This document shows, in pieces, positions 6,014 through 61,236 of a stretch of DNA of 64,000 bases (its first letter is position 1; each line of letters opens with the position of its first letter). This DNA is from a bacterium (lineage in GTDB: Bacteria; Patescibacteriota; Andersenbacteria; UBA10190; CAIZMI01), in contig JAUSJG010000027.1 in the NCBI GenBank assembly GCA_030647555.1, positions 15,532-79,531 of the forward strand. The letters are read 5' to 3'. Both the position numbers and the translations under genes were made by a program. The notes under the pieces were generated by a model. The model was not told where the DNA came from and made no database searches. It saw nothing but the letters and a program-made list of their open reading frames with translations.

Positions 6014-6228
6014 ATGTTTGTATAAGGATAATGTCTATAATGTATACCGTTTTTGCAAAGGAGCAAGGAGTTGCTAATTTCTAATTTGCAATTTCTAATT
6101 TTTTCGGCATTGGGGACTGACGTAAATAACCTGTTCATATTTTGTTTAAGTACGCTTAAGAATAAGATTACTATGATTGAACAACGTAAAGTTGCGTGAC
6201 CACGTGGTTTTACGCGATGGTCGTCTAA

Positions 6229-12300: not shown

Positions 12301-12434
12301 ACTATCAAAATAAACAAACAATAAAGTTGCCAAACCTAAAACCCAACACGAAGTATTATTTCGAGATTATTGTTACCGATCTGCAAAAAGAACAAGCGTA
12401 CGACGCGTATTATAGTTTTGTGACGAAAGAGTAG
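6312..12434 (+). CDS. Giant (2040-aa) secreted/anchored surface protein: signal anchor, Pro/Thr linker, two tandem DUF2341-like + LamG/ConA-like modules, beta-helix-like Thr/Gly-rich region, Ig-like and two FN3-like domains, duplicated C-terminal helical region, terminal FN3-like domain
   Basis: N-terminal hydrophobic segment, then TPTPTSDPTPTP linker. Two copies of W..RKKITI...FP.L....G..DIRFT module. Each copy followed by LLDDVRISN..RSAEWI / LLDDTRVSSTARSAGWI (LamG signature). Two FN3-like repeats (W.WTDNS..E.GFKLY...Y.R.V.SYN..G.S.YS). Internal duplicate QGRxNRLALAxxGT. Domain names assigned by motif recognition only. Confidence 0.75.
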   Translation: MLRTFKSVFPGILTVVLFMGWFSLATPKLFAEEGVASSQETSTTPEVDPLATSGVVLGEATPASTPTPTSDPTPTPNSTPLPTPDPTPAVTPPITPVPNPSPTATPEGTDPENEKPNITKTEEDTDTGKLVTLSAPDETVNNQNVVTGTEIPEIYKVGQEGRIQIKWKNNNDQAMQFKAEDKNNNGKLDYVEWTVPHLSTQVFEIIYISKAFQLDENKEIISDIYDKVKTQDNNWATVKDGQSVRVTFQQVLDNTKDITIHARPKQNPLLSLFQAKPKIEVYPVYSTTPETSGVQASEPIATFQSIDKENTYQILLKDLKTPTDQFDLRVINGDIDFDYIVDPVGWLTNWTHRKKITIANTNVDADLTDFPALVSITADADLATALATGYDIRFTDSGGSTLLSYERESWSGGAGASATGIFWVKVPTIDDTVDTDIYVYYGKSDAVDGQSAVNVWDSNYKGVWHMDDGADTSHINDSTSNGKTGTKEGAATPSQTTGLIGKAQSFAAQQISTSNIGVSTVAGDKTTVDFWMKWDGTDEVMPFGFAAYDLYMHLSGIGFNSAQGDVYGIPTTGFSGNWKHITAVFFNGAYTGNTKIYVNGVSQTLTQLFGGAGSATVSVNPMISGWGYNSGYKFSGLLDDVRISNLERSAEWIKFEYYNQSSANAELTFASQENNVSWLAGWSNRKKITIDHTKVGGGTETQTNFPVLISLTGLSGINANGTDIRFTADDGGTYLAREIESYSAGALTAWVKIPTLSHTADTVIYMYYGNSSATEPAANSTYGSQNVWDSSFKGVWHLKEATGVNNADSTSNANTGTPTNGPVQATGKVDGSLSFDGGDDYVNVGTIINVGNTFSVDAWFNANEVKTAGLVSVIDSGGDGHYGIWTRNDGTVELILDWSTGWTSVSTTYSTNNWIHIIGTFDGTTLRLYKNGILAISNTPSGTPINASNNLVIGAITAASFPFNGLLDDTRVSSTARSAGWIATEYANQNSPGTFYATDDTGGTSNNIVWTDGSGDNLWSTAGNWQGGVVPTASDTAVFNSSATGNVTIDTNASVKGINIASGYTGTITQSASYTVTIGTSGFTQADGVFSAGAGAFTVSGNWAHSAGTFTANSGTVTLNGTAQTISGSTTFYNLTKSVASADTLTFTAGTTQTITNTLTLNGASGQLLSLRSSSTPTQWSIDPQGTKSFSYLDIQDSNNINAVKANAGSTSISSGNNTNWFFDDTLPTIQSVSSDKANNTYTTGTVIDIDLTFSEPVTLTGTGTITLETGTTDQTCDFQVTDSATTTCNYTVQTGDTSSDLTVKTVEGTIKDSAENQMTNFVPASNLAVNKQIVIDTFPTAPSNLTATVLSSSSIKWDWTDNSSNEAGFKLYSSTGTLLATVSTGVTTYTETTLTENTTYNRKVVSYNNAGNSAYSSTVSALTKLNAPSLLSGLAISSTSITWSWTDNSGDETGFKLYDENNDLVATISTVNRTYYTETSLTKGTSYTRKVASYNDDGTSSYSNTVTVQTLALAPASPKLFTPVPGAELDTLTPTFSFGRVSTLDGIKSYTLLIYTEGSTTKSYTITDLPDGSVVNNSDYTAEGNQDSITITLKTEAGLVKGPHTWKVRATDNNNATGDSDFASFTIVLTETTAVISQPTPTATSSPAPLEELAVKPLTPAEVTKQYQAGKTPSRTSPSLWLDNLEKQAQIRADKQTENMDQLLSKFIPFEKIQAFNNRLQAFMQSLQQKLASFFNTMKNQIIAFFTNTTPSSVQRFFAFLSSFFQNTSNWWAELMQQGRANRLALAEQGTNIFVVSFNPVNKVVSSMQAGVFNIIEKFQGINTPKDAILADITANQTALKQSTNRLVEGTVDFFGRQFNATKKIAISLFAGAHTTFRYKVLAGTGVIIRNTGTWLHNLMSQGRENRLALAGSGTKVVNTIIDPVQRVRKAAWLGSIQALEVLEGKDQLKLAIADVHLSEILNNEATLNWSTNRVTYAKVNYGESLMYGEEVFINDYQNKQTIKLPNLKPNTKYYFEIIVTDLQKEQAYDAYYSFVTKE

Positions 12435-12742: not shown

Positions 12743-13960
12743 ATGTCCCTATTTTCCAGAAAAGAATCTTATATCGGTTTAGATATTGGTACGTCTTCAA
12801 TAAAGATTGTTGAATTGAAGCGAGAGGGGAAGGATCAAATAAGATTAGTTACCTATGCGTCCGCGAAGAGCGCGGAGTCTTTGGCGAGTGATCAAAACAA
12901 TTCAGCCGTCGCGCATGTTGCGACAATCGCGCACGAGATATTACGGCGCGCGGGGGTGACTTCTTCGGAAGTGGTAGCCGCGCTTCCCAGTTTGTCTGTT
13001 TTTTCTGCTGTACTTTCTCTCCCTGATATGAGTGAACGTGATTTGGAAAAGGCGGTTGTTTTGGCGGCCAAAAATTATGTACCATCGCCATTAAAGGATG
13101 TTGTTTTGGGTTGGACGGTGATGAAGGAGGGTATTTCGTCAAAACCGGCATTGCCTGTGGATAAATCCAATAATCAGATGCAGTCGGTTGTAGGTGCCGT
13201 GGGAAAATTTGTTGATTTGAAAAAAAATGAAAATTCGGGCCAAGAGAAGCAAATTGTTCCGGTTGTTCCCGAAGATAGCGCCGAATTGAAAGTGCGTCGC
13301 CCTCTTGCGAAGAAAAACTCGGAAATATTTTTGACGGCTGCTCCCAAGGAATTGGTGCAACGCTATTCGGCGGTGATTGATCGATTGAATTTGAGCTTGG
13401 TTGCGTTGGAAGTCGAATCTTTTCCACTTTCACGTTCTCTTTTGGGGAACGCGAAGGAACCGGCGTTATTGGTGGATATTGGCGATTTGGCGACAAATTT
13501 TTCGATTGTGGATAACGGTTATTTGCGCATCAACCAGAGTGTCGATATTGGCGGAGCCGTATTAACCAAGGCTGTTGTCTCAAAATTTGGTGTTTCGTTG
13601 GAAGTGGCGGAAGCGCGCAAGTTTTCCTTTGGTTTAACTTCGGAAAAAGATAATGAAAGTACGGCAATGGCTTTAAAACCGGTAGTAAAAGATATTATTG
13701 ATCGAAGTATTAATCTAAAACGTATTTTTGAAAGAAAAAGCAATAAGGTTGTTGGTCGCGTGGTATTGATTGGCGGGGGGGCGAACCTAAAAGGTCTTGC
13801 GCAATTTTGGCAAGAAACATCGGGGATGTTTACCGAGGTGGGAAATCCATGGAAAGGCGTGCGGGTTCCGCTCACTTTAACTAATAAGTTAATTGCAAAC
13901 GGGCCTTCTTTCGCGGTGGCGGTTGGTTTGGCATTGCGCGAATTGGAACTTGGGGACTGA
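12743..13960 (+). CDS. pilM: Type IV pilus assembly protein PilM (actin-like ATPase fold)
   Basis: 405 aa. N-terminal YIGLDIGTSSIKIVEL actin-fold phosphate-1 motif. C-terminal VVLIGGGANLKGL. Sits at the head of the pilN/O/B cluster. Confidence 0.85.
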   Translation: MSLFSRKESYIGLDIGTSSIKIVELKREGKDQIRLVTYASAKSAESLASDQNNSAVAHVATIAHEILRRAGVTSSEVVAALPSLSVFSAVLSLPDMSERDLEKAVVLAAKNYVPSPLKDVVLGWTVMKEGISSKPALPVDKSNNQMQSVVGAVGKFVDLKKNENSGQEKQIVPVVPEDSAELKVRRPLAKKNSEIFLTAAPKELVQRYSAVIDRLNLSLVALEVESFPLSRSLLGNAKEPALLVDIGDLATNFSIVDNGYLRINQSVDIGGAVLTKAVVSKFGVSLEVAEARKFSFGLTSEKDNESTAMALKPVVKDIIDRSINLKRIFERKSNKVVGRVVLIGGGANLKGLAQFWQETSGMFTEVGNPWKGVRVPLTLTNKLIANGPSFAVAVGLALRELELGD

Positions 13961-14129
13961 CGTAAATAAACTATCCATCTTATGTCCACTACATCTCTGA
14001 CTACAATTACTACTCAATCACAAAATCTCTCACCGTACTTACAGTACGCCTCAAGATTTTGTTCAATCGTAGTAACCGTATTCAGAGCGTATTGAACAGA
14101 ATATGGACAGGTTATTTACGTCAGTCCCC
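13952..14129. repeat. 178-bp element bounded by 27-bp terminal inverted repeats (ggggactgacgtaaataaactatccat ... atggacaggttatttacgtcagtcccc); left TIR overlaps the pilM stop codon; a third TIR copy at 6102-6128
   Basis: Inverted repeats read directly. Reverse complement of the right arm is ggggactgacgtaaataacctgtccat. Near-identical 27-mer at 6102-6128. Confidence 0.55.
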
Positions 14130-14192
14130 AAAGCGAGTAAAATAGAATAAGTTATTCACAGGAGAGATATACACACTAAACAAAACACTACA

Positions 14193-14843
14193 ATGCCGAA
14201 AATAAATCTAGCTCAAGAAACAATGCGAAACCAAGCCATTGCGCGACGACGCAAGGTTGTGTATTTATTTTCGATTGTCGTCTTGGTGATTGTTGGTGCG
14301 TTTTATTTTGGCGTTTTGTTGCTAACAAAAAATTCTGAGGGAAAAGTGGCCGAAGTTGATAAACGTATCAAGGGTTTGGAACAACAAATTAAATCGCGCG
14401 AAGTCTCGGCAAAACAGATCAAGGCGTTTAGTATGCGTTTAGTTAATGTGGAGAGTCTTCTGAAAAACCATACGCGCTGGTCAACGACTTTGAGTGAGCT
14501 GGAGCGCCTAGTTTTGCCATCTGTTAGCATCCTTGGATTAAATGGCGGTGCGGATACCAAAGAGATCACGATGGATGTTTCGGCGCCAACAATCGAAACC
14601 GCGGCCGATCTTGTCGTGTCGCTAGAATCGGAGGCAAAAAATAATGAAACATTTTTCAGTAACGTTATTGCGTCATCATTGGGTTCGAGTAGTTCGAGCA
14701 GTTCAACGCCTAACGCAAGTACTGTTTTTGCTACAAAGCTTAAGTTTATAGTTAAACCGGAAGGGTTTCTTGATAAGAACATTTCCGTTTCTTCAGCCGA
14801 GTCTCCGGCTGTGGCGACGCCCGTTAATCCATTAATTCCCTAA
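14193..14843 (+). CDS. pilN: PilN-like type IV pilus inner-membrane assembly protein
   Basis: 216 aa. Single N-terminal TM helix then coiled-coil. Positioned after pilM. Confidence 0.55.
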   Translation: MPKINLAQETMRNQAIARRRKVVYLFSIVVLVIVGAFYFGVLLLTKNSEGKVAEVDKRIKGLEQQIKSREVSAKQIKAFSMRLVNVESLLKNHTRWSTTLSELERLVLPSVSILGLNGGADTKEITMDVSAPTIETAADLVVSLESEAKNNETFFSNVIASSLGSSSSSSSTPNASTVFATKLKFIVKPEGFLDKNISVSSAESPAVATPVNPLIP

Positions 14844-14847
14844 TCTT

Positions 14848-15495
14848 ATGGCACGCGCAACAACTGGTCTTTCTTACCTAACATTTGGTGTTGTAGTTTT
14901 GGGCTCATTAGTCTTTGGTGTTTTCGTCTTAATTCCGCAATTTGGACAATACAATTCGGCAAACGCGCAATTGGCACAGGCGTTAACGCAAGAACAAAAT
15001 AACCAAGCCTTCTTGGATAATTTGGATCTGCGAACTGAAGAGTTGAAAAAATATAGTGCTGATGCGAAAGCGCTTAGTGTGGTTTTGCCGGATAGATTTA
15101 TGCAGAGCAGTTTTTGGGTAAATATTAATGATTTGGCCATAAAGGCGGGAGTAGTGGTAAACACGATAAGTGATTCAAAAAAAGAAGCTGTTCCGCAAAG
15201 TAATACAAATCAACCAGTGGTGACCGCAAAATCCGTGTTGGCGAGTGACGGCACTCCGGTTGTTCAGGAAAATATTGTTTCGTCTCCAACCTCGAGATTG
15301 GAAAAATGGGTGACGTCTATTCAGGTTAAAGGTAACTATTCGCAGATTAGGGCGTTTATCAAGAATTTAGAGAGTTCTCTTATTCTTTCGGATTTGAAGG
15401 AGCTTAAGTTGTCTCCGGGAGCGTCTTCCGATAAAAGTACCGTAGTGGATATGCTTTCGGCCGACATGACGATTCGAACATATGTTCAACCTTAG
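14848..15495 (+). CDS. pilO: PilO-like type IV pilus assembly protein
   Basis: 215 aa. N-terminal TM then coiled-coil (AQLAQALTQEQNNQAFLDNLDLRTEELKK). Gene order pilMNO. Confidence 0.5.
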   Translation: MARATTGLSYLTFGVVVLGSLVFGVFVLIPQFGQYNSANAQLAQALTQEQNNQAFLDNLDLRTEELKKYSADAKALSVVLPDRFMQSSFWVNINDLAIKAGVVVNTISDSKKEAVPQSNTNQPVVTAKSVLASDGTPVVQENIVSSPTSRLEKWVTSIQVKGNYSQIRAFIKNLESSLILSDLKELKLSPGASSDKSTVVDMLSADMTIRTYVQP

Positions 15496-15512
15496 TTCAT
15501 AATACCGATACC

Positions 15513-15806
15513 ATGAATTCACAAAATATCAGAGTTGTCGCTTATAGTGCAGTGGGGGTATTAGTATTAGTGCTTGTTGGTATTGTTAGTTACATTTATT
15601 TATCCGGCCGACAGCCGGCGGGTTTACAGCAGGTTGCGCGTTTAAATGTGGGCGGTGTTTCGTCGAATGAGGCTAATAGTCCCTTTAATGTCGCGGTGTT
15701 AAACAGTGGTGCGTATAAAGCGCTGGATAAGTCCTTGCTTGATGCGGATAAGTTGCCCGTAAAAGTGCCGGAAAACAGAGGTAAAGCCAATCTTTTTGGA
15801 ATATAG
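15513..15806 (+). CDS. Small single-TM protein; possible PilP-like component
   Basis: 97 aa. One TM helix. Position between pilO and pilB only. Confidence 0.3.
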   Translation: MNSQNIRVVAYSAVGVLVLVLVGIVSYIYLSGRQPAGLQQVARLNVGGVSSNEANSPFNVAVLNSGAYKALDKSLLDADKLPVKVPENRGKANLFGI

Positions 15807-15853
15807 TTTTAATGAGAGGAGAATGAGTGAAGAAATATTCAGGGCGGTAACGC

Positions 15854-17626
15854 TTGAGTAATTTGCGATTTTTAAAAAATATGGCTCAATATAATCAAGG
15901 TTCAATCGAAGATGTCTTAGAAGAATGGGGTTTTCTTGCGACTGATCAAAAAGAAACACTTAGGGATACGGCGATTAAAAGTGGTCGCACGATCGATGAG
16001 ATTTTGTTGAGTGAAAGAGTTGTTCCCGAAGAGCAGTTTTATCGTGCCAAAGGAAAAGTACTTGGTATTCCATACATCAATTTGGCAGATTTAGAGATAC
16101 AACCGGACGCCGTTTCAGTTATTGCCGCGGATGTGGCAAAGAATTATAATTTTTTAGCTTTTGCTAAAGACGGGACGACATTGCATGTGGCAATGGCCCA
16201 ACCGGACGACTTTCAGGCGTTGGAAGCATTAAAATTTCTAACAAAAAATACGGGCTTAAAAACGGAAATTCATATCGCTTCGGCCACATCTGTTTTGGAC
16301 GCGCTTTCAAAGATTTCCGGTGGCTTGACCGGGGAAGTGCAGAGCGCGATCAGAGAGTTTAATGAGGAATTGGAAGATGTTCGAAAGGATGTAAGGGGCG
16401 GTGACAGAGATGTGGAAAAAATAGTCGGCGAAGCGCCCGTTACAAAAGCGGTGGCGGTTATTTTACGCCACGGCATTGAAGGAAAGGCGTCGGATGTACA
16501 CATTGAACCAAGCGCGGAAAATTTGCGCGTCAGATTTCGTGTTGATGGGTTGCTATATACGAGCCTTCTTTTGCCGTTAAAACTGCATAATCCGTTAACA
16601 TCGCGTATTAAAATTTTAAGTAATTTAAAAATAGACGAACAGAGATTGCCACAAGACGGTCGGTTTTCCACAAGCGCCGGTGGGCATGAATATGACATCC
16701 GTGTCTCTATTTTGCCAACGGTCTACGGTGAAAAAATTGTTTTACGTATTTTGGACAAATCGCAAGGGGCGGTACCGTTTGAAAAACTTGGTTATACCGG
16801 TGTGCGCTTGGAACACTTCAAAGCATCTTTAGCTAAGCCACACGGATTAATATTGATCACCGGCCCAACCGGTTCTGGAAAATCAACAACGTTATACACA
16901 GCTATTGATAGCATCTGTGATTCAACTCTTAATGTTGTTACTCTCGAAGATCCTGTTGAATATCGTATCGCGGGCACCAATCAGTCACAAATTAATTCGG
17001 ATATTAATTTTTCTTTTGCTAATGGTTTACGAAGTATTTTGCGTCAAGATCCCGATATAATTATGGTTGGAGAAATTCGTGACAAAGAAACGGCCGAATT
17101 GGCGGTACATGCCGCGTTAACCGGTCATTTGGTGTTGTCTACGTTGCATACCAATGACGCAATCGGCGCAATTCCGCGCTTGATCGACATGGGACTTGAA
17201 CCGTTTTTGTTGGCTGCCGTGTTTCGCGTGGTTGGCGCGCAACGTTTGGTTAGACGTCTTTGTGAAGCGTGTAAAAAAGAAGTTCCCATTCCAATGGAAT
17301 TTCGTGATATAATAACCAATGTAATCGCAACTGTTCCTGATTCAGAAAAAACGGAAGCAAATCAGAAAGATCCTAAGGTTCTTTATGAAGCCGAGGGATG
17401 TAAGGATTGTGGTGGCAAGGGCACGAGCGGGCGTATCGCTGTCGTGGAAGTTATCCCAATTACAGAGGATTTAAGGCAGGCGATGATGTTGCGTAAATCG
17501 CAAGCGGATATGTATAAGATTGTTGTAAAGGAAAGAATTCTTTCAATGCGTCAAGACGGTTTTCTTAAAGCGTTACTCGGAGTAGTATCATTAAGAGAGG
17601 TTCTCGAAGTTACGTCAGAGGATTAG
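15854..17626 (+). CDS. pilB: Type IV pilus assembly ATPase PilB (GspE family)
   Basis: 590 aa. N-terminal GSPII_E N-domain. Walker A GPTGSGKSTTLY. Asp box and His box. Tetracysteine CEACKK...CKDCGGKG zinc motif. Confidence 0.9.
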   Translation: MSNLRFLKNMAQYNQGSIEDVLEEWGFLATDQKETLRDTAIKSGRTIDEILLSERVVPEEQFYRAKGKVLGIPYINLADLEIQPDAVSVIAADVAKNYNFLAFAKDGTTLHVAMAQPDDFQALEALKFLTKNTGLKTEIHIASATSVLDALSKISGGLTGEVQSAIREFNEELEDVRKDVRGGDRDVEKIVGEAPVTKAVAVILRHGIEGKASDVHIEPSAENLRVRFRVDGLLYTSLLLPLKLHNPLTSRIKILSNLKIDEQRLPQDGRFSTSAGGHEYDIRVSILPTVYGEKIVLRILDKSQGAVPFEKLGYTGVRLEHFKASLAKPHGLILITGPTGSGKSTTLYTAIDSICDSTLNVVTLEDPVEYRIAGTNQSQINSDINFSFANGLRSILRQDPDIIMVGEIRDKETAELAVHAALTGHLVLSTLHTNDAIGAIPRLIDMGLEPFLLAAVFRVVGAQRLVRRLCEACKKEVPIPMEFRDIITNVIATVPDSEKTEANQKDPKVLYEAEGCKDCGGKGTSGRIAVVEVIPITEDLRQAMMLRKSQADMYKIVVKERILSMRQDGFLKALLGVVSLREVLEVTSED

Positions 17627-17665
17627 TAAGTGTAAAATTTTTTATCATTAGCAAACCATCTGATT

Positions 17666-18055
17666 ATGGATCCAGCCAAAGCAAAAATATTACTAGTTGA
17701 AGATGATACGTTCATTTCGGGCATGTACCAAACAAAACTTTCGATGCTTGGCTATTCAGTGCGGGTTGCTTCTGACGGTGAAGCAGGGTGGGCAGAGTTG
17801 CAAAAAGAGGCACCGAATATTGTTTTGCTGGATATTGTTCTTCCCAAAAAAGATGGCTTTGAGATTCTTAGTGAAATCAGAGCAAGCGCGACTTTAAAGA
17901 ATTTGCCGGTAATTTTATTAACAAACCTTGGTCAAAAACCGGACGTTCAGAAAGGTTTGGAATTAGGCGCCGATGACTATATTATTAAGGCGCATTTCAC
18001 GCCAACTGAAGTTGTGGAAAAGATTGAAAAAATGTTAGCCAAAAAAATAGCCTGA
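17666..18055 (+). CDS. Stand-alone CheY-like response-regulator receiver domain (PilH-like)
   Basis: 129 aa. ILLVEDD ... LLDIVLPKKDG ... K residues of the receiver fold. No output domain. Confidence 0.8.
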   Translation: MDPAKAKILLVEDDTFISGMYQTKLSMLGYSVRVASDGEAGWAELQKEAPNIVLLDIVLPKKDGFEILSEIRASATLKNLPVILLTNLGQKPDVQKGLELGADDYIIKAHFTPTEVVEKIEKMLAKKIA

Positions 18056-18084
18056 AGTAGTAGCAGATTTAATAACATAAAAAA

Positions 18085-19182
18085 ATGATCGGACGAACAC
18101 CGGAAAATCTTCTTAAAGACCTTTTCGAGCATGTAATTAGTCGTAATGCGTCTGATTTGCACTTGTCGGTGGGGAGACCGCCCGTAATTCGTATCGATGG
18201 GAAACTTTTTTCGGTTCCGGAGGTTGGTGTGTTAACAAAAATTGATTTAAATGAGGTGTTTAAGGCGATTGGTGGAGAAGAAAGGGCCAAGAAATTTGAT
18301 CAAGGTCAACAAGAGGTGGATTTTGCCTTTGCGCATGAAAGCGGTTTCCGCTTCCGTGTTAATGTCTATTTAACTTCTCAGGCGATAACAATCGCCATGC
18401 GGACAATTCCTCGCGACATTCGTACCTTGGATGAATTAAGTCTTCCGCACGAATTAGAGCAGTTTGCAAAACCGTCGCAAGGTTTTGTTTTAATTACCGG
18501 CCCAACTGGACACGGAAAAACAACTACCATGACGGCGATTGTGAATATAATTAATCGATCGAAAGTTGCTCATGTTATTACTATTGAAGATCCTGTGGAA
18601 TATGTTTACGTGGAAGATAAATGCCTGATTCATCAACGGGAAATTGGTCGTGATACCGAATCATTCTCGCAGGCGCTGAAAATGGCTTTTCGTGAAGACC
18701 CGAATGTCGTAGTGGTTGGTGAAATGCGTGATTTGGATAGCATTGCTACGGCTTTAACTATCGCGGAAACCGGTCACATGGTGTTTGCCACTTTGCACAC
18801 CAACAATTCCGCGCAAACCATCGACCGTATCGTTGATGTTTTTCCTGTCGGGCAACAGGCCCAAATTAGAACGCAGTTGGCGGGAACATTAACAGGGATT
18901 GTTTCACAGCGGTTAGTGCCGGCCAAGAACGGTGGTCGCTTACCGGCAGTTGAATTGCTTTTGGCCACACCAGCCGTTCGAAACTTAATTCGTGAGGGTG
19001 AAACGGCGCAAATTCCAGGGGTAATTCAAACTAGCGCCTCCCAAGGGATGATTCCTTTGGAAAGATCACTTAAATCGTTGGTTGATCAGAACCTTGTAAC
19101 AGTAGAGGAAGCAATGGTTTTTGCTTCCGACCCGTCGCTTCTTGGGTATAGCGATTTTGCGATGGGCAGTTCTATGGTATAA
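18085..19182 (+). CDS. pilT: Twitching-motility/retraction ATPase PilT
   Basis: 365 aa. Walker A GPTGHGKTTT. PilT-type His box. No N-terminal GSPII_E_N extension. Confidence 0.9.
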   Translation: MIGRTPENLLKDLFEHVISRNASDLHLSVGRPPVIRIDGKLFSVPEVGVLTKIDLNEVFKAIGGEERAKKFDQGQQEVDFAFAHESGFRFRVNVYLTSQAITIAMRTIPRDIRTLDELSLPHELEQFAKPSQGFVLITGPTGHGKTTTMTAIVNIINRSKVAHVITIEDPVEYVYVEDKCLIHQREIGRDTESFSQALKMAFREDPNVVVVGEMRDLDSIATALTIAETGHMVFATLHTNNSAQTIDRIVDVFPVGQQAQIRTQLAGTLTGIVSQRLVPAKNGGRLPAVELLLATPAVRNLIREGETAQIPGVIQTSASQGMIPLERSLKSLVDQNLVTVEEAMVFASDPSLLGYSDFAMGSSMV

Positions 19183-19205
19183 TTTAGTCACACAAATAAA
19201 CACAC

Positions 19206-20414
19206 ATGGCGGACTATCAATATCGCGTACGTAATCGGCAGGGAAACATTTCACGGGGTGTTATTAAAGCATCATCGGAAGAAGAGGCTGTTGAGATGTT
19301 GGGACAACACGGGCTCGTGCCGATTGAAATCCGTGATTCTAAAGATACATCTTTTTTCAGCAAAGAATTAACACTCAAAAACGTATCGGTGCGCGATCGC
19401 GCGATATTCTCGCGTCAATTGGCGACGATGATTTCTTCCGGTATTCCTATTTTACAGGCCCTGCGTATTCTGGTTTCTCAAACGGAAAATTCCAAGCTCG
19501 CCGATATTTTGAGAGAAGCTACATACGATATTGAAGGCGGGGAATCGTTGAGCAATGCGTTAGAAAAATATCCGCACCAATTTTCTGAATTCTTTATTAG
19601 TATGGTACGCAGTGGCGAGCAAAGTGGACGCGTGGCGGAGGCGTTGGAACGATTGGCAGACAACGAGGAAAGGAACTATTCCCTTATTAGCAAAGTGAGA
19701 GGCGCTCTGATTTATCCCGCCTTCGTTATTTCCGCCATGCTGGTAATGGGTCTATTGATGGTGGTGTTTGTTATTCCGCAATTAACGGGGCTGTTTGATC
19801 AGTCGGATGTTGAATTGCCGTTTATCACAAAAGTATTGATGGGAAGTTCCACGGTCATTGGGACTTATTGGTGGTTTATTCTGCTTTTTATAATCGTTGC
19901 AGGTGTTTTAATTTCGTTCTATGTGCGTACAACGGAGGGTAGGTATAATATGCACGCGATAATGTTGCGATTGCCAATTGCCGGTCGGTTACTTCAGAAA
20001 ATGTACCTCGCGCAGTTTACCGGAGCGATGGAAGTGCTGGTGAAAAGTGAAATTCCCGTGGTGCAGGCCTTGATGGTGGCGCGTGATATCATGGGTAATA
20101 AAATTTATCGTCAAATCATTGACGAAACGGCCGAAGAGGTTAAAAACGGTTCAACCATTTCTTCTGCTTTTGAAAAATATCCGGAAATTCCAATGATGGT
20201 TTCGCAGATGATCAGTGTTGGTGAGCGTAGCGGTGAATTGGGCAAGTCTTTAAGTTCCGTGAATCGTTTTTATCAAAGAGAAGTGAACGATGCTGTGCAA
20301 AACATAACGCAATTAATTGAACCGGTTGTTATCGTAGTTCTTGGTGTTGGTGTGGCCGTAATGATTATGGCGGTGTTGATGCCAATTTATCAGTTGGTAA
20401 ATGTGATACAATGA
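19206..20414 (+). CDS. pilC: Type IV pilus platform protein PilC (two T2SS-F domains)
   Basis: 402 aa. Duplicated T2SSF-type helical domains, three TM segments. Confidence 0.85.
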   Translation: MADYQYRVRNRQGNISRGVIKASSEEEAVEMLGQHGLVPIEIRDSKDTSFFSKELTLKNVSVRDRAIFSRQLATMISSGIPILQALRILVSQTENSKLADILREATYDIEGGESLSNALEKYPHQFSEFFISMVRSGEQSGRVAEALERLADNEERNYSLISKVRGALIYPAFVISAMLVMGLLMVVFVIPQLTGLFDQSDVELPFITKVLMGSSTVIGTYWWFILLFIIVAGVLISFYVRTTEGRYNMHAIMLRLPIAGRLLQKMYLAQFTGAMEVLVKSEIPVVQALMVARDIMGNKIYRQIIDETAEEVKNGSTISSAFEKYPEIPMMVSQMISVGERSGELGKSLSSVNRFYQREVNDAVQNITQLIEPVVIVVLGVGVAVMIMAVLMPIYQLVNVIQ

Positions 20415-20507
20415 GGGTAGCTTTTAGGTTAATTTTGAACTTAGAAGCAAGATGGGCCTTGAAGAATAACTGGTTTATTTACGCCCAAAATTACCAATGT
20501 CCAATTA

Positions 20508-20541
20508 CCAATTTCCAATGAAATTTCAAATTCCAAAAACG
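20508..20541. promoter_or_regulatory. CCAATTTCCAA...CCAATGAAAT motif upstream of the pilin gene (also at 48612-48637 and 59351-59394)
   Basis: Three copies, each in the 5' region of a plus-strand gene. Confidence 0.35.
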
Positions 20542-20645
20542 TCGTCTTTGCGCCTGCCGGCCGTAGCTTTAGCGAAGGCTGGAGCCAATCTCCTGAACTT
20601 TCGTATTGAAAACATTACTATTTTATCGAGAGGAGGTGATCGCGT

Positions 20646-21056
20646 GTGAAAAAGTTAAATAACAAAGGTTTTACCCTCATCGAATTGTTGGTTGTTATTG
20701 CGATCATCGGATTGCTAGCATCAATGGTTTTGGTGGCGGTATCAACAGCAAGAGCAAAGGCGAAGGATGCCCGCGTTAAAGCTGATGTTCAACAAATTAG
20801 GGTTCTTGCGGAAGCTTCGGCGAGTGATTCTGGTTCTTACTCAGACACGACTAGTTGGCCTACAGCAGCACAAACATCTTACGGAACACTTTCTGGTGAT
20901 ATTGGATCTCAAGGAGGTACGGTTACAAAAAATGTTAATGGAACAACCTCGTTCTGTATTAGTTCAACTTTGCCATCTGATAGTACTAAGAGTTTTTGTT
21001 TGGCGACTACAGGCAAAACTGGTACCGTTGCGTGTGGAACAGGAGATTGTCCGTAA
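20646..21056 (+). CDS. pilA: Type IV (major) pilin, class-III signal peptide (GTG start)
   Basis: 136 aa. KG|FTLIELLVVIAIIGLLA prepilin cleavage/N-methylation motif. AGGAGG Shine-Dalgarno 8 nt upstream. Confidence 0.85.
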   Translation: MKKLNNKGFTLIELLVVIAIIGLLASMVLVAVSTARAKAKDARVKADVQQIRVLAEASASDSGSYSDTTSWPTAAQTSYGTLSGDIGSQGGTVTKNVNGTTSFCISSTLPSDSTKSFCLATTGKTGTVACGTGDCP

Positions 21057-21060
21057 AGAT

Positions 21061-21145
21061 ACAAATGGAAAAAAACAACGCGGAAAATCCCGCGTTGTTT
21101 TGTATTGTAGTTTTCCCCGACTTCGTGCCTACTCTCTGTTTAGTT
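21061..21145. repeat. 85-bp module containing a bidirectional rho-independent terminator (copy 1, terminates pilin gene)
   Basis: aaaaaaacaacgcggaaaatcccgcgttgtttt hairpin with flanking A-run and T-run. Identical 85-mer at 21432-21516. Confidence 0.65.
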
Positions 21146-21431
21146 CCCGACTTCGGAGGTGTTTGACATAACAATAAAATATGATTTATTAATCAGCTTG
21201 CATTGGCCAATTATGTGATTTTCAACATATGAAAAAACGCACTAACGCGACGTTTTTTTCACTTTTTTGTCTTTGACAAATTCTAAAATATTTAACTTAA
21301 TAATTAGCTTATACTAGCTAATTATTTTTGATTTACACCAGTAAAAAACTTTTTTCAAAGGATTGCAAAAAATTGTTTTATTTTCGTACATGAGTGTTTA
21401 TAAAGAAACGCACTAAACCTCCGAACTCAGG

Positions 21432-21516
21432 ACAAATGGAAAAAAACAACGCGGAAAATCCCGCGTTGTTTTGTATTGTAGTTTTCCCCGACTTCGTGCC
21501 TACTCTCTGTTTAGTT
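21432..21516. repeat. Second identical copy of the 85-bp terminator module, abutting the stop codon of the minus-strand GT-C gene
   Basis: Exact 85/85 identity with 21061-21145. Confidence 0.65.
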
Positions 21517-22739
21517 TATAGGTGGGTTTGTGTTGATTTTTTTTCTAGTGATGCCGTAACAAATATTAAGACGATAATGTAAAAGATAATTATTCGGGAG
21601 AACCATAGCGCAAGGTTGCTAAACGATGGGACAAACAGCGCAAGTAATTGTAATGGCAGGATTGTAAATAACGCGAGATAAAAAATTTGTCGGGCATATA
21701 AATTAAATTTGATAAACAATTTTTCATACAAAATATCCATCGTAAACAGCGAAAGAAAGATGTGCAGAATAAAAATTATTTGATAAAAGAACCGTAAATT
21801 ATTCATTGATGATTTTAAGAGCAAGACCGTTGTTACACTTATGGTTAAAAATAAGGCCATTAGAAACAGTCTTGGAATTGTTAATTTATGCTTTAAGGTA
21901 ATGAGGAAAGAAAGAGAAATAAACGCGATAAAGGTAAGCGGTGCGTCTAAAATGAAACTGCTAAAAGTCACTTCTCGAAAATAGTAGGCGGGTATAATGT
22001 TTGTAGCGATATCGGTATCGATTAAGCTTGTAGTTCCCAAAAGTGATGAGCTCAAGAACGAAAAAGGGGAGTGCCAAAGATAGGGATCGGTTAGAAAAAA
22101 TACAGCAATAGCAATTATTGCTAGAATAATCATGTTTTTGAATGAGTGATAATACCAGATCAGAACGGGTATAAATACGGCCAGCATTAGGGTCATATGG
22201 ATTCTCGAAGCAAGTGCTAGCCCAATGCAAACACCAATGAATAAGGTGTCTAATGGGAGTGTTTTTCTTTCTTTAACGTGATAAAGCGTGATAATCCAGG
22301 CTAATCCAAGCAATTTAGCGGTGATTATATCGGAAGGGTTGGTGAAAAGCGCATAGTCGCTACCCAGTAAAATTGCAATCCAAACAAGCCACCAGAGATT
22401 GTTTCTGTATATTTTAAAAACATAGAAAAGGATAAAAAACGTCGCAAAAGAGTCTATAATTACACACGCTAAGCGAATACTGCGCAGTGGTGAAAACAGA
22501 TTTGAAGGAAAAAGATTTGATACCAACAAAGGAAATGTTCCCGGGTGCGTGGAATGGATACTCGGATTAAAGTCGAAACTATGCGTCCGCAGGTCGTTTA
22601 CTAGTTGGATTTTCTTTCCAACCCAGTAGCCCCCGTCAGCAATACCTGCGGTATTCCAAAGAAAAAGAGAAATTAAAAATATAGCCAGAAAGATGATGGG
22701 AAAGCAACGAATGGGGTTTATTTGGCTAATTTTGTACAT
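21516..22739 (-). CDS. Polytopic membrane protein, GT-C-fold glycosyltransferase-like (ArnT/PMT/O-antigen-ligase-like); candidate pilin glycosyltransferase
   Basis: 407 aa, at least 10 predicted TM helices. Periplasmic loops with Asp-rich motif near the N-terminus. Function inferred from topology and location between the two pilin genes. Confidence 0.45.
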   Translation of the reverse strand: MYKISQINPIRCFPIIFLAIFLISLFLWNTAGIADGGYWVGKKIQLVNDLRTHSFDFNPSIHSTHPGTFPLLVSNLFPSNLFSPLRSIRLACVIIDSFATFFILFYVFKIYRNNLWWLVWIAILLGSDYALFTNPSDIITAKLLGLAWIITLYHVKERKTLPLDTLFIGVCIGLALASRIHMTLMLAVFIPVLIWYYHSFKNMIILAIIAIAVFFLTDPYLWHSPFSFLSSSLLGTTSLIDTDIATNIIPAYYFREVTFSSFILDAPLTFIAFISLSFLITLKHKLTIPRLFLMALFLTISVTTVLLLKSSMNNLRFFYQIIFILHIFLSLFTMDILYEKLFIKFNLYARQIFYLALFTILPLQLLALFVPSFSNLALWFSRIIIFYIIVLIFVTASLEKKSTQTHL

Positions 22740-22886
22740 TAGGGCTTATTTTGTGGATTTATTATTTTATTTAGCTAGTAAAGTGTAAGGTACAGATTTT
22801 GGTTATGAACCGCAACTATAGGTTGTATTGTGTGCTATAATTAAAAAAGTGATTAATGGGGGGATAATTCTTATTAGCGAATCTAA

Positions 22887-23324
22887 ATGAAAATAAATAC
22901 ACAGAAAAACAAAAAAGGGTTTACGATGATAGAGTTGTTGGTTGTAATATCGGTGATTGCTTTACTTGTCGCCCTCGTGCTTGTTGCAGTCTCAATGGCT
23001 AGGGTGAAGGCAAATAATTCTCGGATTAAGGGCGATATGGACCAGTTGCGGAAGCAAGCAGAAGTGATATACGTAGCAAATGGAATGACAACATATTGTA
23101 AGGGCGTAGTTGCGGGGGATTGTTTTAGTAATGGTCAGAACCCTCAGGTAATTTTGCTTCGTGATGATATTGTGAAAAGAAGTTATGCTGCAGCTTATCC
23201 AAATCTGATCGCAAATGATATTGGATATTGCATTTCATCAAAAATGGCAAATAATAATAGGCTTTGTTATGATTCTTCGGGCAAACAAACGACGGGTATG
23301 TGTTCGGGCATCGTGTGCCAATAA
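22887..23324 (+). CDS. Second type IV pilin (class-III signal peptide)
   Basis: 145 aa. KKG|FTMIELLVVISVIALLVALV. C-terminal cysteines (CYDSSGKQTTGMCSGIVC) suggest a disulfide-bonded loop. Confidence 0.85.
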   Translation: MKINTQKNKKGFTMIELLVVISVIALLVALVLVAVSMARVKANNSRIKGDMDQLRKQAEVIYVANGMTTYCKGVVAGDCFSNGQNPQVILLRDDIVKRSYAAAYPNLIANDIGYCISSKMANNNRLCYDSSGKQTTGMCSGIVCQ

Positions 23325-24079
23325 TGTTGGTAGTAATTGTTGGGGTTGCCCTTATCATTGGTAGTTTTTTGACGGTCGCTTCGGAAGACCCGGATGGGTT
23401 TGATTGGTTGACGCGAAAACGGTCGAAATGCATGGAATGTGGGCATGTTTTGGATTTTTATGATCTTTTTCCGGTTTTTAGTTACTTGTGGTTGAAGGGA
23501 AAATGTCGCTATTGTGGAAAACTTATTGCTCCATATCATTTGATCACCGAATTAACGACTGTTTTCGTTTTTGTATTAGCTTATTTAGTTACTCCGAAAC
23601 CGCTACAAATAGGTTTTGTTTTTTTGTTAGTGATGCTGACACTATTATTGGTGCTTACTTTAACAGATCTGAAGTTTTGGACGCTACCGGATATCTTCGT
23701 CGGTCTATTGGCGCTTGTTGGTATTATTCGCGCCATAGTTATACACAGGCCGGATATAAAAGACTGTCTGGCGGGTGCGGTTGTGGGTTTTTTGTTGCTC
23801 GGTGGTATTCACTATTTTTCAAAAGGGAAGGCAATGGGCTTTGGGGACGTAAAACTGGCCGCCGCCATGGGGGTTGTACTGGGACTAGGACAAGTTGTTC
23901 TGGCCTTAATGATTGCTTTTGTCTTGGGAGGCATTGTTGGCGCTGTGCTTATGGCTCTAAAGAAGGCAACCGCAAAAAGCATGGTGCCGTTTGGGCCGTT
24001 TCTCACAATTGCAACGGCACTATTGTTGTTATTTCCACAGTTATATGGACGTATTCTTCTTTTTTACGGTCTGATGTAA
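23300..24079 (+). CDS. pilD: Prepilin peptidase PilD (A24 family); likely true start at the ATG at 23324 overlapping the pilin stop (TAATG)
   Basis: 259 aa. CMECGHVL...CRYCGK tetracysteine zinc motif. Multiple TM helices. Conserved catalytic Asp residues context. Confidence 0.85.
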   Translation: MFGHRVPIMLVVIVGVALIIGSFLTVASEDPDGFDWLTRKRSKCMECGHVLDFYDLFPVFSYLWLKGKCRYCGKLIAPYHLITELTTVFVFVLAYLVTPKPLQIGFVFLLVMLTLLLVLTLTDLKFWTLPDIFVGLLALVGIIRAIVIHRPDIKDCLAGAVVGFLLLGGIHYFSKGKAMGFGDVKLAAAMGVVLGLGQVVLALMIAFVLGGIVGAVLMALKKATAKSMVPFGPFLTIATALLLLFPQLYGRILLFYGLM

Positions 24080-24094
24080 GATATAGACAGACAC

Positions 24095-24715
24095 ATGTTA
24101 CGGCAAAAACAAACAATAACTAAAAATTCCGGCTTTACGCTGATTGAAGCCATTGTGACGATAATAATAATGTTGTTATTAATGGGTATTCTTTTATCCG
24201 GTTATAGTCAGGCCAAACAGCGTTTCTTGGTACGTGATTCAGCTCAACAGTTTGCCGATGTAATTAGGCAGACAATCGCTGACACAAAAAACGGCATAAG
24301 GGTTGTACCCGTTGCACCCATTACTTGTGTGCCTGACACCTCAAACCCTGCTACCGCAGATTATCGTCAATGTTCTAATTATAAAATAAGAGCCACCTCA
24401 GTGGATGACGCAGGTGTTACATTTAATAAATATGATAAATATGTAATAGGTACGGGAGTAAAGTACGCAAATGATCCAATGAATCATCCGTTGCTGGTTG
24501 GGACGGCTTTTTTGGGGGAATTAAATCTTGATTTTACTTATTCTACCGGGACATTTCCGCTTGTATCTATTGGTATGACGGGTAATGGTGGTAGTGTTAC
24601 GTCGAACGAGACAATTCAGCTGACGATAATAAGCTTGAGCGATGGAAATATAAAAACTAATATTTGTATTATGAAGTCAGGTTCTGTGTTGGTTCAAGCA
24701 GATCCTTGTAACTAG
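24095..24715 (+). CDS. Minor pilin / pseudopilin with prepilin-type N-terminus
   Basis: 206 aa. NSG|FTLIEAIVTIIIMLLL. Confidence 0.75.
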   Translation: MLRQKQTITKNSGFTLIEAIVTIIIMLLLMGILLSGYSQAKQRFLVRDSAQQFADVIRQTIADTKNGIRVVPVAPITCVPDTSNPATADYRQCSNYKIRATSVDDAGVTFNKYDKYVIGTGVKYANDPMNHPLLVGTAFLGELNLDFTYSTGTFPLVSIGMTGNGGSVTSNETIQLTIISLSDGNIKTNICIMKSGSVLVQADPCN

Positions 24716-24723
24716 AAAAATTT

Positions 24724-25440
24724 ATGAAAAAATATAAATTTTTAAAATCAAACATAAAACAGAGAGGGTTTTCCTTGGTTGGTGTTTTGGTGGCGGCATT
24801 TATCGCGCTCCTTGTTCTTACGGCGCTTCTTTCAATGCTTTCGCAAATTTTAGCACTGGGAAGGGTTTCTAAAAACAAGTTCGTGGCCGTCAATCTGGCA
24901 AAAGAAGGGATTGAGCTGGTTCGCAATATGCGAGACAGTAACTGGTTGTATTATCCAGTCGTGAGTGGGACATCGGTACAAGCGATGCAATGGCGGGGAT
25001 GTCAAGGTGGTGGTACTGCTACAGATTGCGTGAAATTAAAAAGTTTGTGCAATGGGGGGCCATATACAGTCGATGCTTTGGATGATGACCTTATTTTGAA
25101 AAGTGCCCCCAACCTCACCGATAGAGAGTTGAAACAGGTTACTTATGGAGGGGCAAAAGTGTTTACACATCAAGCAGGTGGCACTACTAACCCCATCTTT
25201 AGTCGGTCAATAACAATTGGTTCGGCGGACATAGAACCCTCTGAATTGTCTGAAGATTATTTACCAGTCTTGCTTGGTTGTGGCGAAACGGCTGATTTCT
25301 CGAGCACTAATTCTTTAAAAATAAAACCAAGAGGTATTGTTGTTACTTCGAGGGTTGAGTGGCTTGAACCGGGGACTGGCACACCTAAGAATGTCGAGTT
25401 GACGGGAATTTTATATGATTGGTTAACACAAAGGCCATGA
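24724..25440 (+). CDS. Minor pilin-like protein (PilV/PilW-like N-terminus)
   Basis: 238 aa. QRG|FSLVGVLVAAFIALLVL. Confidence 0.6.
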   Translation: MKKYKFLKSNIKQRGFSLVGVLVAAFIALLVLTALLSMLSQILALGRVSKNKFVAVNLAKEGIELVRNMRDSNWLYYPVVSGTSVQAMQWRGCQGGGTATDCVKLKSLCNGGPYTVDALDDDLILKSAPNLTDRELKQVTYGGAKVFTHQAGGTTNPIFSRSITIGSADIEPSELSEDYLPVLLGCGETADFSSTNSLKIKPRGIVVTSRVEWLEPGTGTPKNVELTGILYDWLTQRP

Positions 25441-26045
25441 GGTATCAAGAAAAAAATAGCGGTTTTTCGTTGATTGAATTAATGGTGGCCGGTTCAATCT
25501 TTATACTTGTCTTGGGCTTTGTGGGTGGAATATTTTCAATGTTTGTTAGTCGACAGAAGCAACAGGTTGATACACAGTTACTACAGCAGGAAGTGCAGAA
25601 CTTTTTGGAAGTTATCGAACGTGACGTTAGGACAGCGTACGGAGAAAAGTTTAATGATCCGAATGCATCATCAAATCAATCGATTTCATTTATGAATCAA
25701 GAGCAAAAGTTTACGCTCCCTGTTAGTGAGCGAGTTGAACATCAATATTCTTTAAAGACCGATATGGTCGAAAATTGGATAGGGCGAGTATATTATAATG
25801 ACGGCAGTGGATCATTATCTATGCCTATTCCTATTACATCCGATAAAATTAATGTAACAAACCTAGAGTTCAAATGGAATAAAGGGAAGTTCGCGACAGA
25901 CAGTAGTGGTAACCATTATCTAACCGGAGTTCCTTTACGGCTAACTATCGCGCTTGAGGTGTGTAGACGAGATGATCTAACCTCGTGCCTGCAAACTCAG
26001 GCCACGATTGCTTCTCGTCAAACTAAGCCGATAGATGAAAAATAA
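25437..26045 (+). CDS. Minor pilin with prepilin-type N-terminus (start chosen at ATG overlapping upstream stop, ATGA; longest ORF would start 25419)
   Basis: NSG|FSLIELMVAGSIFILVL. Confidence 0.7.
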   Translation: MRYQEKNSGFSLIELMVAGSIFILVLGFVGGIFSMFVSRQKQQVDTQLLQQEVQNFLEVIERDVRTAYGEKFNDPNASSNQSISFMNQEQKFTLPVSERVEHQYSLKTDMVENWIGRVYYNDGSGSLSMPIPITSDKINVTNLEFKWNKGKFATDSSGNHYLTGVPLRLTIALEVCRRDDLTSCLQTQATIASRQTKPIDEK

Positions 26046-26491
26046 TGCTTAAATATATTTTACAAAAAAACAACAATAAGGGGGAAGTGGCGCTAATTTA
26101 TGTTTTCATTATTTTGTCGATACTGATTGTAAGCGCATTTACTCTTTCCGCGATCGCTATAAGTACAATTAAGGGGTCCGGGACCGCCGAATATGTTGCC
26201 CGTGCTCAAGTCGCCTCCGACAGTTATCTTGAAAAAGCGATGTTTCAATTTCATTGGTCAAAACTCACAGACAGTCGATGCTTGAATACGGTAACACCCG
26301 TTGACGGTGATGGCACGAAGGTTACTGTAATGGTGGACAATGGTGAAAAAGGAGTGTGCCCATCGCTTGATGGTGTTGTTACAAAAAAAGATGAAAAGCT
26401 CTGTGTGTATTCATTTGCTGAAAATCACGGCGTTCAGAAAAAGGGATCGGCCGGAGCGGGTGACCCTACAAAGGGTTGCGAAGTGAGATAG
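26045..26491 (+). CDS. Pilus-associated hypothetical protein with N-terminal hydrophobic helix (PilX-like?)
   Basis: 148 aa. TAATG coupling to upstream gene. N-terminal membrane helix. Several cysteines. Confidence 0.4.
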   Translation: MLKYILQKNNNKGEVALIYVFIILSILIVSAFTLSAIAISTIKGSGTAEYVARAQVASDSYLEKAMFQFHWSKLTDSRCLNTVTPVDGDGTKVTVMVDNGEKGVCPSLDGVVTKKDEKLCVYSFAENHGVQKKGSAGAGDPTKGCEVR

Positions 26492-32875: not shown

Positions 32876-32879
32876 CGAT

Positions 32880-32915
32880 ACCCTCCCTTATTCAAGGGAG
32901 GGCGAGGGTGGGTTT
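32880..32915. repeat. Hairpin-family repeat ccctcccttattcaagggagggcgagggtggg (partial copy of the CCTCCCTTT..AAAGGGAGG family)
   Basis: Read directly. Related copies at 44255, 48726, 53100 and 61237. Confidence 0.5.
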
Positions 32916-34935: not shown

Positions 34936-34940
34936 ATGTG

Positions 34941-35591: not shown

Positions 35592-35617
35592 CAAATTATT
35601 CGTAGGGTATTTGTACA

Positions 35618-61229: not shown

Positions 61230-61236
61230 TAGCATT

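Follow-up and report, generated by a model that had tools for sequence, protein, structure and literature searches.

A secretin-less type IVa-like pilus cluster of an uncultured patescibacterium, with a candidate GT-C glycosyltransferase gene between its two pilin genes

We analyzed a stretch of 64,000 nucleotides (here called the window) from an uncultured small-genome bacterium of the Patescibacteriota (Andersenbacteria; assembly GCA_030647555.1, contig JAUSJG010000027.1, 109,794 bp long, positions 15,532 to 79,531; locus tags Q7S57_055xx) and, judging from its genes, recognize positions 12743 to 26491 as a genuine, essentially complete type IVa-like pilus cluster without a secretin. Its genes most likely specify a single type IVa-like pilus machine, of a secretin-less type that is conserved in the Patescibacteria (candidate phyla radiation [CPR]). 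Type IV pili are the best-supported organelle of attachment and motility in these ultrasmall, largely uncultured bacteria, and the pilins are what the cells show to hosts and phages. This kind of locus has already been described in the Patescibacteria and matches the type IV pilus (T4P) locus one of Saccharibacteria; in itself, it adds one more example and little beyond. However, three of its features were not found described in the literature that we searched: a family of GT-C membrane proteins encoded within the pilin cassette, a lone Shine-Dalgarno (SD) sequence on one of two pilin genes (pilin 1), and a conserved receiver domain encoded between the genes of the motor ATPases. These features bear on how the cells modify, mass-produce, and regulate the pilus, and studies in the Saccharibacteria, which are genetically tractable, could build on them.

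Pilus machinery and its conservation in relatives

A first-pass annotation, made from the DNA alone, had proposed a complete pilus locus here, and all the open reading frames (ORFs) that it claimed are present where, and in the order in which, it had placed them. Profile searches bear out its labels for PilM, PilO, PilB, the receiver, PilT, PilC, and PilD. The machinery genes are listed below with window coordinates and strand (aa, amino acids; TM, transmembrane).

12743-13960 (+), pilM, actin-like cytoplasmic alignment protein (405 aa; TIGR01175, 164 bits, cutoff 133; PF11104, E = 4.7e-42)
14193-14843 (+), pilN-like bitopic membrane protein (216 aa; N terminus MPKINLAQE, then one TM segment)
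14848-15495 (+), pilO (215 aa; PF04350, 26.9 bits, cutoff 22; weak GspM match)
15513-15806 (+), conserved single-TM protein (97 aa; TM residues 4-34)
15854-17626 (+), pilB, extension ATPase (590 aa; T2SSE, E = 1.5e-124, plus an MshEN domain)
17666-18055 (+), stand-alone receiver domain (129 aa; PF00072 only, E = 3.1e-24, residues 8-120)
18085-19182 (+), pilT, retraction ATPase (365 aa; TIGR01420 of the PilT/PilU family, 415.5 bits, cutoff 319.1)
19206-20414 (+), pilC, platform protein (402 aa; two T2SSF domains, E = 4.9e-59; GspF and PilC models below cutoff)
23324-24079 (+), pilD, prepilin peptidase/N-methyltransferase (251 aa from the ATG; A24_N_bact, E = 9.2e-22; Peptidase_A24, E = 1.4e-13)

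The assignment to type IVa pili rather than to a type II secretion system (T2SS) or a Tad system is upheld by a PilT-family protein above its cutoff, matches to PilM and PilO, a PilB-type ATPase with an MshEN domain, pilins with short leaders, PilC, and a bifunctional PilD. The leaders, of 8 and 11 residues, and the mature pilins of ~130 aa point to a type IVa-like pilus. PilB displays a Walker A motif (GPTGSGKST), a His box, and two CxxC pairs (CEAC and CKDC); PilT displays AVRNLIRE at residue 297, Walker A and B motifs, and a His box, and is devoid of CxxC; and PilD displays CMEC, CRYC, LPD, and GFGDVK. No secretin domain was recovered among the window ORFs scanned, nor was the PilQ/PilP pair of diderm systems found within the 64 kb, an absence that fits a monoderm or CPR-type system. 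Since both PilB and PilT are present alongside the other type IVa components, the earlier prediction of a dynamic pilus that extends and retracts is sound.

Two of the proposed labels fared less well. The PilM-PilN-PilO subcomplex is represented by PilM and PilO above their cutoffs and by a PilN whose label stands on its position, its topology with a single TM segment, and an N-terminal KINL (INL) motif; no match to the PilN Pfam family was found, and the ORF, which is syntenic in two relatives (L002 and L003), resembles just the Amuc_1101 PilM-like family, weakly (E = 0.0028) and over the C-terminal part of that family. The tentative naming of the 97-aa ORF as PilP found no backing, with neither PilP nor any other significant match even at E ≤ 10. 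This ORF is nevertheless kept at the same position in every relative examined (78% identical in L002, 49% in L003, and 61% in L016, with a 106-aa ORF in L018).

The relatives were as follows. L002 and L003 are two close relatives from a species-level collection, the former an uncultured lake bacterium (PilT 95% identical) and the latter labeled "Candidatus Saccharibacteria" (PilT 76%). L016 was reached via a 38%-identical homolog of the GT-C protein, and L018 is a distant relative. The gene order from pilM to ligA in L002 is exactly that of the window; L003 shows the same order up to pilC, where its contig ends; L016, whose examined stretch starts at pilO, keeps the order from there to ligA, with the GT-C gene on the pilin strand; and L018 retains pilM-pilN-pilO-small ORF-pilB-receiver-pilT. 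Against this constant order, sequence conservation is uneven. In comparison with L002, PilM (85%), PilB, the receiver, PilT, PilC, and PilD are 85 to 95% identical and PilN, PilO, and the 97-aa ORF 75 to 78%, as against 65 to 69% for the minor pilins, 57% for pilin 2, 56% for the GT-C protein, and 54% for pilin 1. At the DNA level, identity falls from ~0.8 in the machinery to 0.50 to 0.56 across the 3' half of pilin 1 and the C-terminal half of the GT-C gene, the N-terminal half of which stands at 0.79. As these sequence comparisons indicate, the pilin 1/GT-C/pilin 2 segment diverges much faster than the machinery.

The receiver has an intact phospho-acceptor pocket (E12-D13-D14, D56, T86, and K108) and no output domain, as in CheY-like single-domain proteins, and is nearest in sequence to receivers of the OmpR/PhoB type. 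Its position between pilB and pilT is kept in L002, L003, L016, and L018, i.e., in all the relatives seen, and no mention of a receiver in the pilus locus was found in the Saccharibacteria pilus literature searched. By analogy with PilG and PilH, we infer that it may act in motor switching, biasing extension against retraction. The spacer between the receiver and pilT, 29 bp in the window, is enlarged in L002 by ~250 bp (9752-10000), part of which is GC-rich and hairpin-like.

Taken as a machine, the PilM/PilN/PilO alignment complex, the 97-aa membrane partner, and the PilC platform would couple a PilB hexamer to filament assembly; PilD would cleave the short prepilin leaders and N-methylate the prepilins; and PilT would drive retraction, yielding a dynamic fiber. 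By analogy with locus one of the saccharibacterium TM7x, its most likely role is attachment to surfaces or hosts together with twitching.

Two unequal pilins and a downstream minor-pilin set

The pilin-like genes and the terminator between them are listed below; a slash in the motifs separates residue -1 from residue +1.

20630-21056 (+), pilin 1 with its SD sequence GAGGAGGTGATC (GTG start at 20646; 136 aa; N_methyl, E = 8.5e-10; 8-residue leader, G/FTLIE)
21072-21101 (no strand), hairpin terminator after pilin 1 (13-bp stem, 6 GC pairs, T run)
22887-23324 (+), pilin 2, first gene of the pilD/minor-pilin operon (145 aa; N_methyl, E = 9.7e-7; G/FTMIE)
24095-24715 (+), minor pilin 1, GspH/FimU-like (206 aa; G/FTLIE; N_methyl, 25.1 bits; weak GspH and PRK10506 matches)
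24724-25440 (+), minor pilin 2 (238 aa; G/FSLVG, without Glu5; N_methyl, 22.4 bits)
25437-26045 (+; ORF from 25419), minor pilin 3, GspJ/ComGF-like (~202 aa from the ATG; G/FSLIE; N_methyl, 17.8 bits, below cutoff)
26045-26491 (+), N-terminally anchored protein without a prepilin motif (148 aa; KGEVALIYVF...; TM residues 11-44)

Pilins 1 and 2 are paralogs (34% identical), and L002 and L016 carry orthologs of both as separate groups. The first-pass annotation had set them apart by a C-terminal cysteine pair in pilin 2 and none in the D-region of pilin 1. This contrast is false: pilin 1 carries Cys104, Cys118, Cys130, and Cys135, which line up with four of the six cysteines of pilin 2 (71, 79, 115, 127, 139, and 144), and a BLASTP alignment of the two places C104 with C115, C118 with C127, and C130 with C139.

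What does separate them is expression signals and composition. Upstream of pilin 1 lies a 12-nt perfect SD sequence, GAGGAGGTGATC, 9 nt ahead of the GTG, with a predicted duplex of -22.8 kcal/mol. No other of the 45 window genes has a strong SD: the second-best duplex reaches -9.8 kcal/mol, and most lie near -2 kcal/mol, including the genes for ribosomal proteins L1 and L25 and nusG; the same scan of 45 gene starts found no SD for pilin 2. The 21-nt leader of pilin 1 is invariant in L001, L002, and L016, whereas the DNA farther upstream differs. Its globular domain is 38% Ser plus Thr (30 to 31% in the orthologs), as against 13% in pilin 2 and other proteins. Pilin 2, for its part, is coupled to pilD through the TAATG that had been claimed (TAA at 23322-23324, ATG at 23324-23326).

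The pilin 1 terminator has a second, identical copy (21443-21472) that ends the GT-C gene. Each copy lies within one arm of a direct repeat, 85 bp long and perfect (21061-21145 and 21432-21516), that flanks a 286-bp AT-rich insert in which no convincing ORF was found. L002 has a single shared hairpin at this junction; the arrangement in the window reflects local duplication or insertion, or else an artifact of assembly. Consensus scans for promoters and terminators returned background (28 found versus 32 expected and 16 versus 14), and we used just this duplicated hairpin from them.

Because of its lone strong SD, its own terminator, and its Ser/Thr-rich variable head, pilin 1 is likely the major pilin. 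The two major-pilin candidates proposed earlier are not on a par: a strong SD, a terminator of its own, and a hypervariable head rich in Ser and Thr are found in pilin 1 only. Pilin 1 would accordingly form the main filament subunit, translated from the sole strong SD of the window and followed by its own terminator, and this SD could point to very high translation or to a special site of control. The operon of pilin 2, pilD, and the four downstream ORFs would provide the peptidase together with low-abundance subunits for priming or for the tip. We read pilin 2 as a PilE-like adaptor; it could equally be a minor pilin of the PilE type or the subunit of a second filament.

Of the four downstream ORFs, all claimed as minor pilins with a G/F[TS]L[IV]E motif, minor pilins 1 (GFTLIE) and 3 (GFSLIE) conform to it, while minor pilin 2 departs from it (GFSLVG) and the ORF at 26045-26491 has no such motif. 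A six-frame motif scan of the window recovered five prepilin motifs, all within the locus. A short leader with G-1, F+1, and E+5 (G/F[ST][LM]IE), alongside a PilD in the locus, is seen in pilin 1, pilin 2, and minor pilins 1 and 3. The N_methyl model (cutoff 21.2 bits) is exceeded by pilin 1, pilin 2, and minor pilins 1 and 2, and not by minor pilin 3 or the last ORF. The Gly at +5 of minor pilin 2 recurs in its L002 and L016 orthologs. Minor pilin 3 overlaps minor pilin 2 by an ATGA and has weak matches to ComGF, HpsC, and GspJ. The last ORF, the start of which overlaps the stop of minor pilin 3, is 68% identical in L002 and 48% in L016; it recovered neither an N_methyl match nor a prepilin motif, and PilX_N only at E = 0.66, and it is possibly a PilX/GspK-like fourth tip subunit. 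The four ORFs are tightly coupled, and their weak best matches are, in order, GspH/PpdA, PilV/HpsC, GspJ/ComGF/PpdB, and PilX_N, so that the first, third, and fourth would follow the H, J, K (FimU, PilW, PilX) order. All six pilin-like proteins contain cysteines (2 to 6 each), and they therefore probably need extracytoplasmic disulfide formation. As a separate observation, the window encodes a DsbA-like thioredoxin-fold protein 10 kb from the locus (36695-37384, -).

The GT-C membrane protein and the weighing of alternatives

Between the two pilin genes lies an inverted gene:

21516-22739 (-), minimal GT-C-fold membrane glycosyltransferase, candidate pilin glycosyltransferase (407 aa)

Its protein is invisible to Pfam and NCBIfam, with no match even at E ≤ 10 and hence none to the curated families PMT_2/GT39/GT83 or GT22. 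An exhaustive HMMER search recovered a family of 139 cluster representatives of 350 to 430 aa, where a word-indexed homolog search with a 56-sequence profile returned 3 proteins only. An alignment of 56 members shows no variation at Asp35 and Trp39 and at least 90% conservation of an H-P-G motif, R179, and several prolines; 4 of the 56 match a curated family (PMT_2 in three, GT22 in one). A profile search of the PDB sequences with the family recovered nothing meaningful. An AlphaFold model was built from the 56-sequence alignment (predicted local distance difference test [pLDDT], 86.6; predicted template modeling score, 0.87; a model from a two-sequence alignment, with a pLDDT of 39.9, was discarded), and its multi-TM core is superimposable on solved GT-C enzymes. 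The "GT-C" label that the gene had received is thus right at the level of the fold. GT-C enzymes have a conserved acidic residue just after TM1; in the model, Asp35 follows TM1 (helix 9-30) and precedes the first loop helix (36-52), which would place a conserved acidic residue in the first extracytoplasmic loop. The protein consists of the TM core only and lacks the soluble acceptor-binding domain of PglB, PMT, and TfpW. An identity as an O-oligosaccharyltransferase of the WaaL/PglL/TfpO type was rejected, as every strong fold match is to GT-C. We also looked for a second GT-C paralog in the gatA-iPGM interval of the window, where L023 has one, and it is absent.

Despite the inversion, the GT-C gene has pilin 1 on one side and pilin 2 on the other not only in the window but also in L001, L002, and L016, at protein identities of 56% (L002) and 37 to 38% (L016). 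On these contextual grounds the enzyme may glycosylate the pilin, a reading that we put at no better than even: it would transfer a sugar from a polyprenyl-phosphate donor to the Ser/Thr-rich head of pilin 1 on the outer side of the membrane. A bolder version, which we hold only tentatively, is that CPR-type bacteria use this unannotated minimal GT-C family (139 representatives of ~350 to 430 aa, each reduced to the TM core and without a Pfam model) specifically for the O-glycosylation of pilins. The gene would then be locked in place by a Ser/Thr-rich, highly translated major pilin on one side and a second pilin on the other, and the enzyme would codiversify with the pilin head. If so, the cells would carry a swappable "pilin plus glycan" cassette for surface variation, which could set recognition by hosts and phages in episymbiotic bacteria, and the lone SD of pilin 1 in an SD-less genome would be a dedicated point of translation control. 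In L018 (5369-8360), as in L019 and L020, a ComFC-like protein (N-terminal CxxC...CxxC plus a phosphoribosyltransferase domain) overlaps the start of two tandem GT-C paralogs, and in L018 this group is divergent from the pilM-pilN-pilO-small ORF-pilB-receiver-pilT operon.

Several observations weigh against the picture of a type IVa-like pilus with a highly expressed, glycosylated pilin 1. PilB and PilC fall below their NCBIfam equivalog cutoffs and reach nearly the same scores with the GspE and GspF models (for PilB, 528 bits on its best NCBIfam match, TIGR02538 PilB, with a cutoff of 675, and 519 bits on GspE, 9 bits lower), and the type IVa class therefore rests on PilT, PilM, and context. 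The PilN ORF and the fourth downstream ORF have no significant family match, and neither a histidine kinase nor genes for sugar-donor biosynthesis were found in the window. Where a genome otherwise lacks SDs, a strong one might serve regulation and need not simply boost translation. Moreover, distant members of the GT-C family adjoin iPGM (L022) or sit between gatA and iPGM, 3.7 kb from pilD (L023), so that the linkage of GT-C to the pilus may be partly regional synteny rather than shared function. The near-equal GspE and GspF scores would also suit a T2SS or a competence (Com) pseudopilus system in place of a surface pilus, as would weak GspG and GspH matches from both pilins and the NCBI name of both, "type II secretion system protein" (PGAP labels the membrane protein, the 97-aa ORF, and the last ORF hypothetical). 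This we judge very improbable, given a PilT-family retraction ATPase above its cutoff with an AIRNLIRE-type motif, a PilM above the PilM cutoff, and the absence from the window of a GspD secretin, GspC, and GspL. For competence, the ComGA (243.9 bits, cutoff 300), ComGB (151, cutoff 240), and ComGC (24 to 26, cutoff 75) models all fall short, far below the PilB and PilC scores, and comEC, comEA, and dprA were not found in the window. A Tad (type IVc) system fits no better: PilB and PilT reach just 39 to 42 bits with the TadA-family model, the cutoff of which is 373, and the pilins are not Flp-like.

With the cluster read as one type IVa-like machine, the roles of its pilins and of the GT-C protein allow further alternatives. 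Both pilins could be major and be assembled alternately by the same PilB/PilC motor into two filament types with different roles, e.g., attachment and twitching versus DNA uptake. In keeping with this, both are short and of the T4a type (136 and 145 aa), with canonical G/FT[LM]IE motifs and N_methyl scores above the cutoff, share a four-Cys C-terminal pattern, and are kept as distinct orthologous groups in L002 and L016, and the PilA4 and PilA5 filaments of Thermus are among the PDB sequence matches. We consider it unlikely all the same, as pilin 2 lacks an SD, is translationally coupled to pilD at the head of the minor-pilin operon, and is not Ser/Thr-rich. A stronger contender is that the GT-C protein is a general glycosyltransferase of the cell envelope, acting on a wall polymer, a lipid, or another surface protein and lying beside the pilins by regional synteny only; this is a real possibility, if somewhat short of an even one. 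The iPGM and gatA neighborhoods of the distant members in L022 and L023, where the gene is not placed between pilins, speak for it, as do the two tandem paralogs of L018, which lie beside and not inside the pilus operon, and the missing extracytoplasmic acceptor-binding domain. Against it stand the position between the pilins, which is kept at 56% and at 37 to 38% identity and survives the inversion; the codivergence of the C-terminal half of GT-C with the pilin 1 head between flanks of ~80% DNA identity; and the unusual Ser/Thr richness of pilin 1.

Flanking elements and comparison with known systems

One element within the boundaries of the cluster does not belong to the pilus:

13945-14135 (no strand), near-perfect palindromic element of ~190 nt resembling a miniature inverted-repeat transposable element (MITE), in the pilM-pilN spacer (overlaps the pilM stop; RNA fold of -81.9 kcal/mol, z = -8.4)

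It is a passenger, present at the same site in L002 (5614-5804) and absent in L003, with an extra L002 copy in the gap between pilD and minor pilin 1 (15625-15762) and a partial copy elsewhere in the window (6107-6184); the hairpin has no Rfam match. Directly upstream of pilM, a secreted or anchored protein of 2,040 aa (6312-12434, +) combines two DUF2341, two LamG-like (Laminin_G_3), and two FN3 domains. As no homolog was found in L002 (tblastn, E ≤ 1e-3), it is probably a variable surface adhesin outside the pilus locus. G-rich intergenic hairpin repeats, TTCCTCCCTTTATTCAAAGGGAGG...GGGGAGGGATT, follow several genes (32879-32914, 44349-44394, 48724-48759, 53097-53132, and 61235-61270) and are probably terminator-like repeats of this genome. 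At 34820-36649, a LAGLIDADG/HTH_23 ORF (35618-36583) is bordered by two tRNA-Met genes and one tRNA-Asp gene, a perfect direct repeat of 56 bp occurs at 34985-35040 and 35123-35178, and the LAGLIDADG-pheST-iPGM neighborhood recurs in L023. The three tRNAs are the only Rfam matches in the window, which contains no rRNA. Its other genes are housekeeping ones (clpB, recX, ligA, gatCAB, pheST, gyrB, nusG, dnaE, thrS, ftsW, and those for L1 and L25).

The closest described counterpart is T4P locus one of Nanosynbacter lyticus TM7x, which comprises pilC, pilB, pilT, pilM, pilN, pilO, pilD, and five pilins and encodes an essential pilus that takes part in twitching motility (PMC12206443); its machinery is conserved across the Patescibacteria, and its pilins are poorly conserved (PMC12206443; PMC9894109). 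The present cluster has the same parts list in one locus and likewise no secretin; the match is one of composition. For locus one, the literature searched mentions neither a receiver between pilB and pilT nor a glycosyltransferase between the pilins. For the receiver, the nearest functional parallel would be PilG and PilH of the Pseudomonas Chp system, two CheY-like proteins of a single domain that control how type IV pili extend and retract. Like them, it is a lone domain with an intact phospho-acceptor pocket and a genetic tie to a type IVa pilus; unlike theirs, its gene has pilB and pilT as neighbors instead of belonging to a chemosensory operon, and neither a CheA-like nor any other histidine kinase was found in the window. 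For the pilins, Thermus thermophilus may offer a precedent, in which one machine builds wide PilA4 and narrow PilA5 pili. Here too, two short pilin paralogs lie beside one assembly set, with weak matches to the Thermus structures 6xxd and 6xxe; the difference is that the translation signals of our two pilins diverge strongly.

The GT-C protein shares only ~10% sequence identity with protein O-mannosyltransferases, ArnT, and Alg9 (GT-C enzymes of the PMT_2 and Glyco_transf_22 families) and, unlike them, has no luminal or periplasmic domain. Its nearest contextual parallel is the group IV cassette pilA-tfpW of Pseudomonas aeruginosa, in which a GT-C arabinosyltransferase, TfpW (646 aa; 11 TM segments; TPR domain in the periplasm), glycosylates Ser/Thr of the pilin (bioRxiv 10.1101/2020.04.19.049825). 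The 407-aa window protein is without such a soluble domain, and donor-sugar pathway genes were not found in the window; the likeness to TfpW is one of context and fold. Yet in both cases the gene of a GT-C membrane enzyme with a conserved Asp in the first extracytoplasmic loop directly adjoins a major pilin gene (here the likely one), the prospective target is a Ser/Thr-rich pilin, and the cassette of pilin plus accessory gene is more variable than the machinery beside it.

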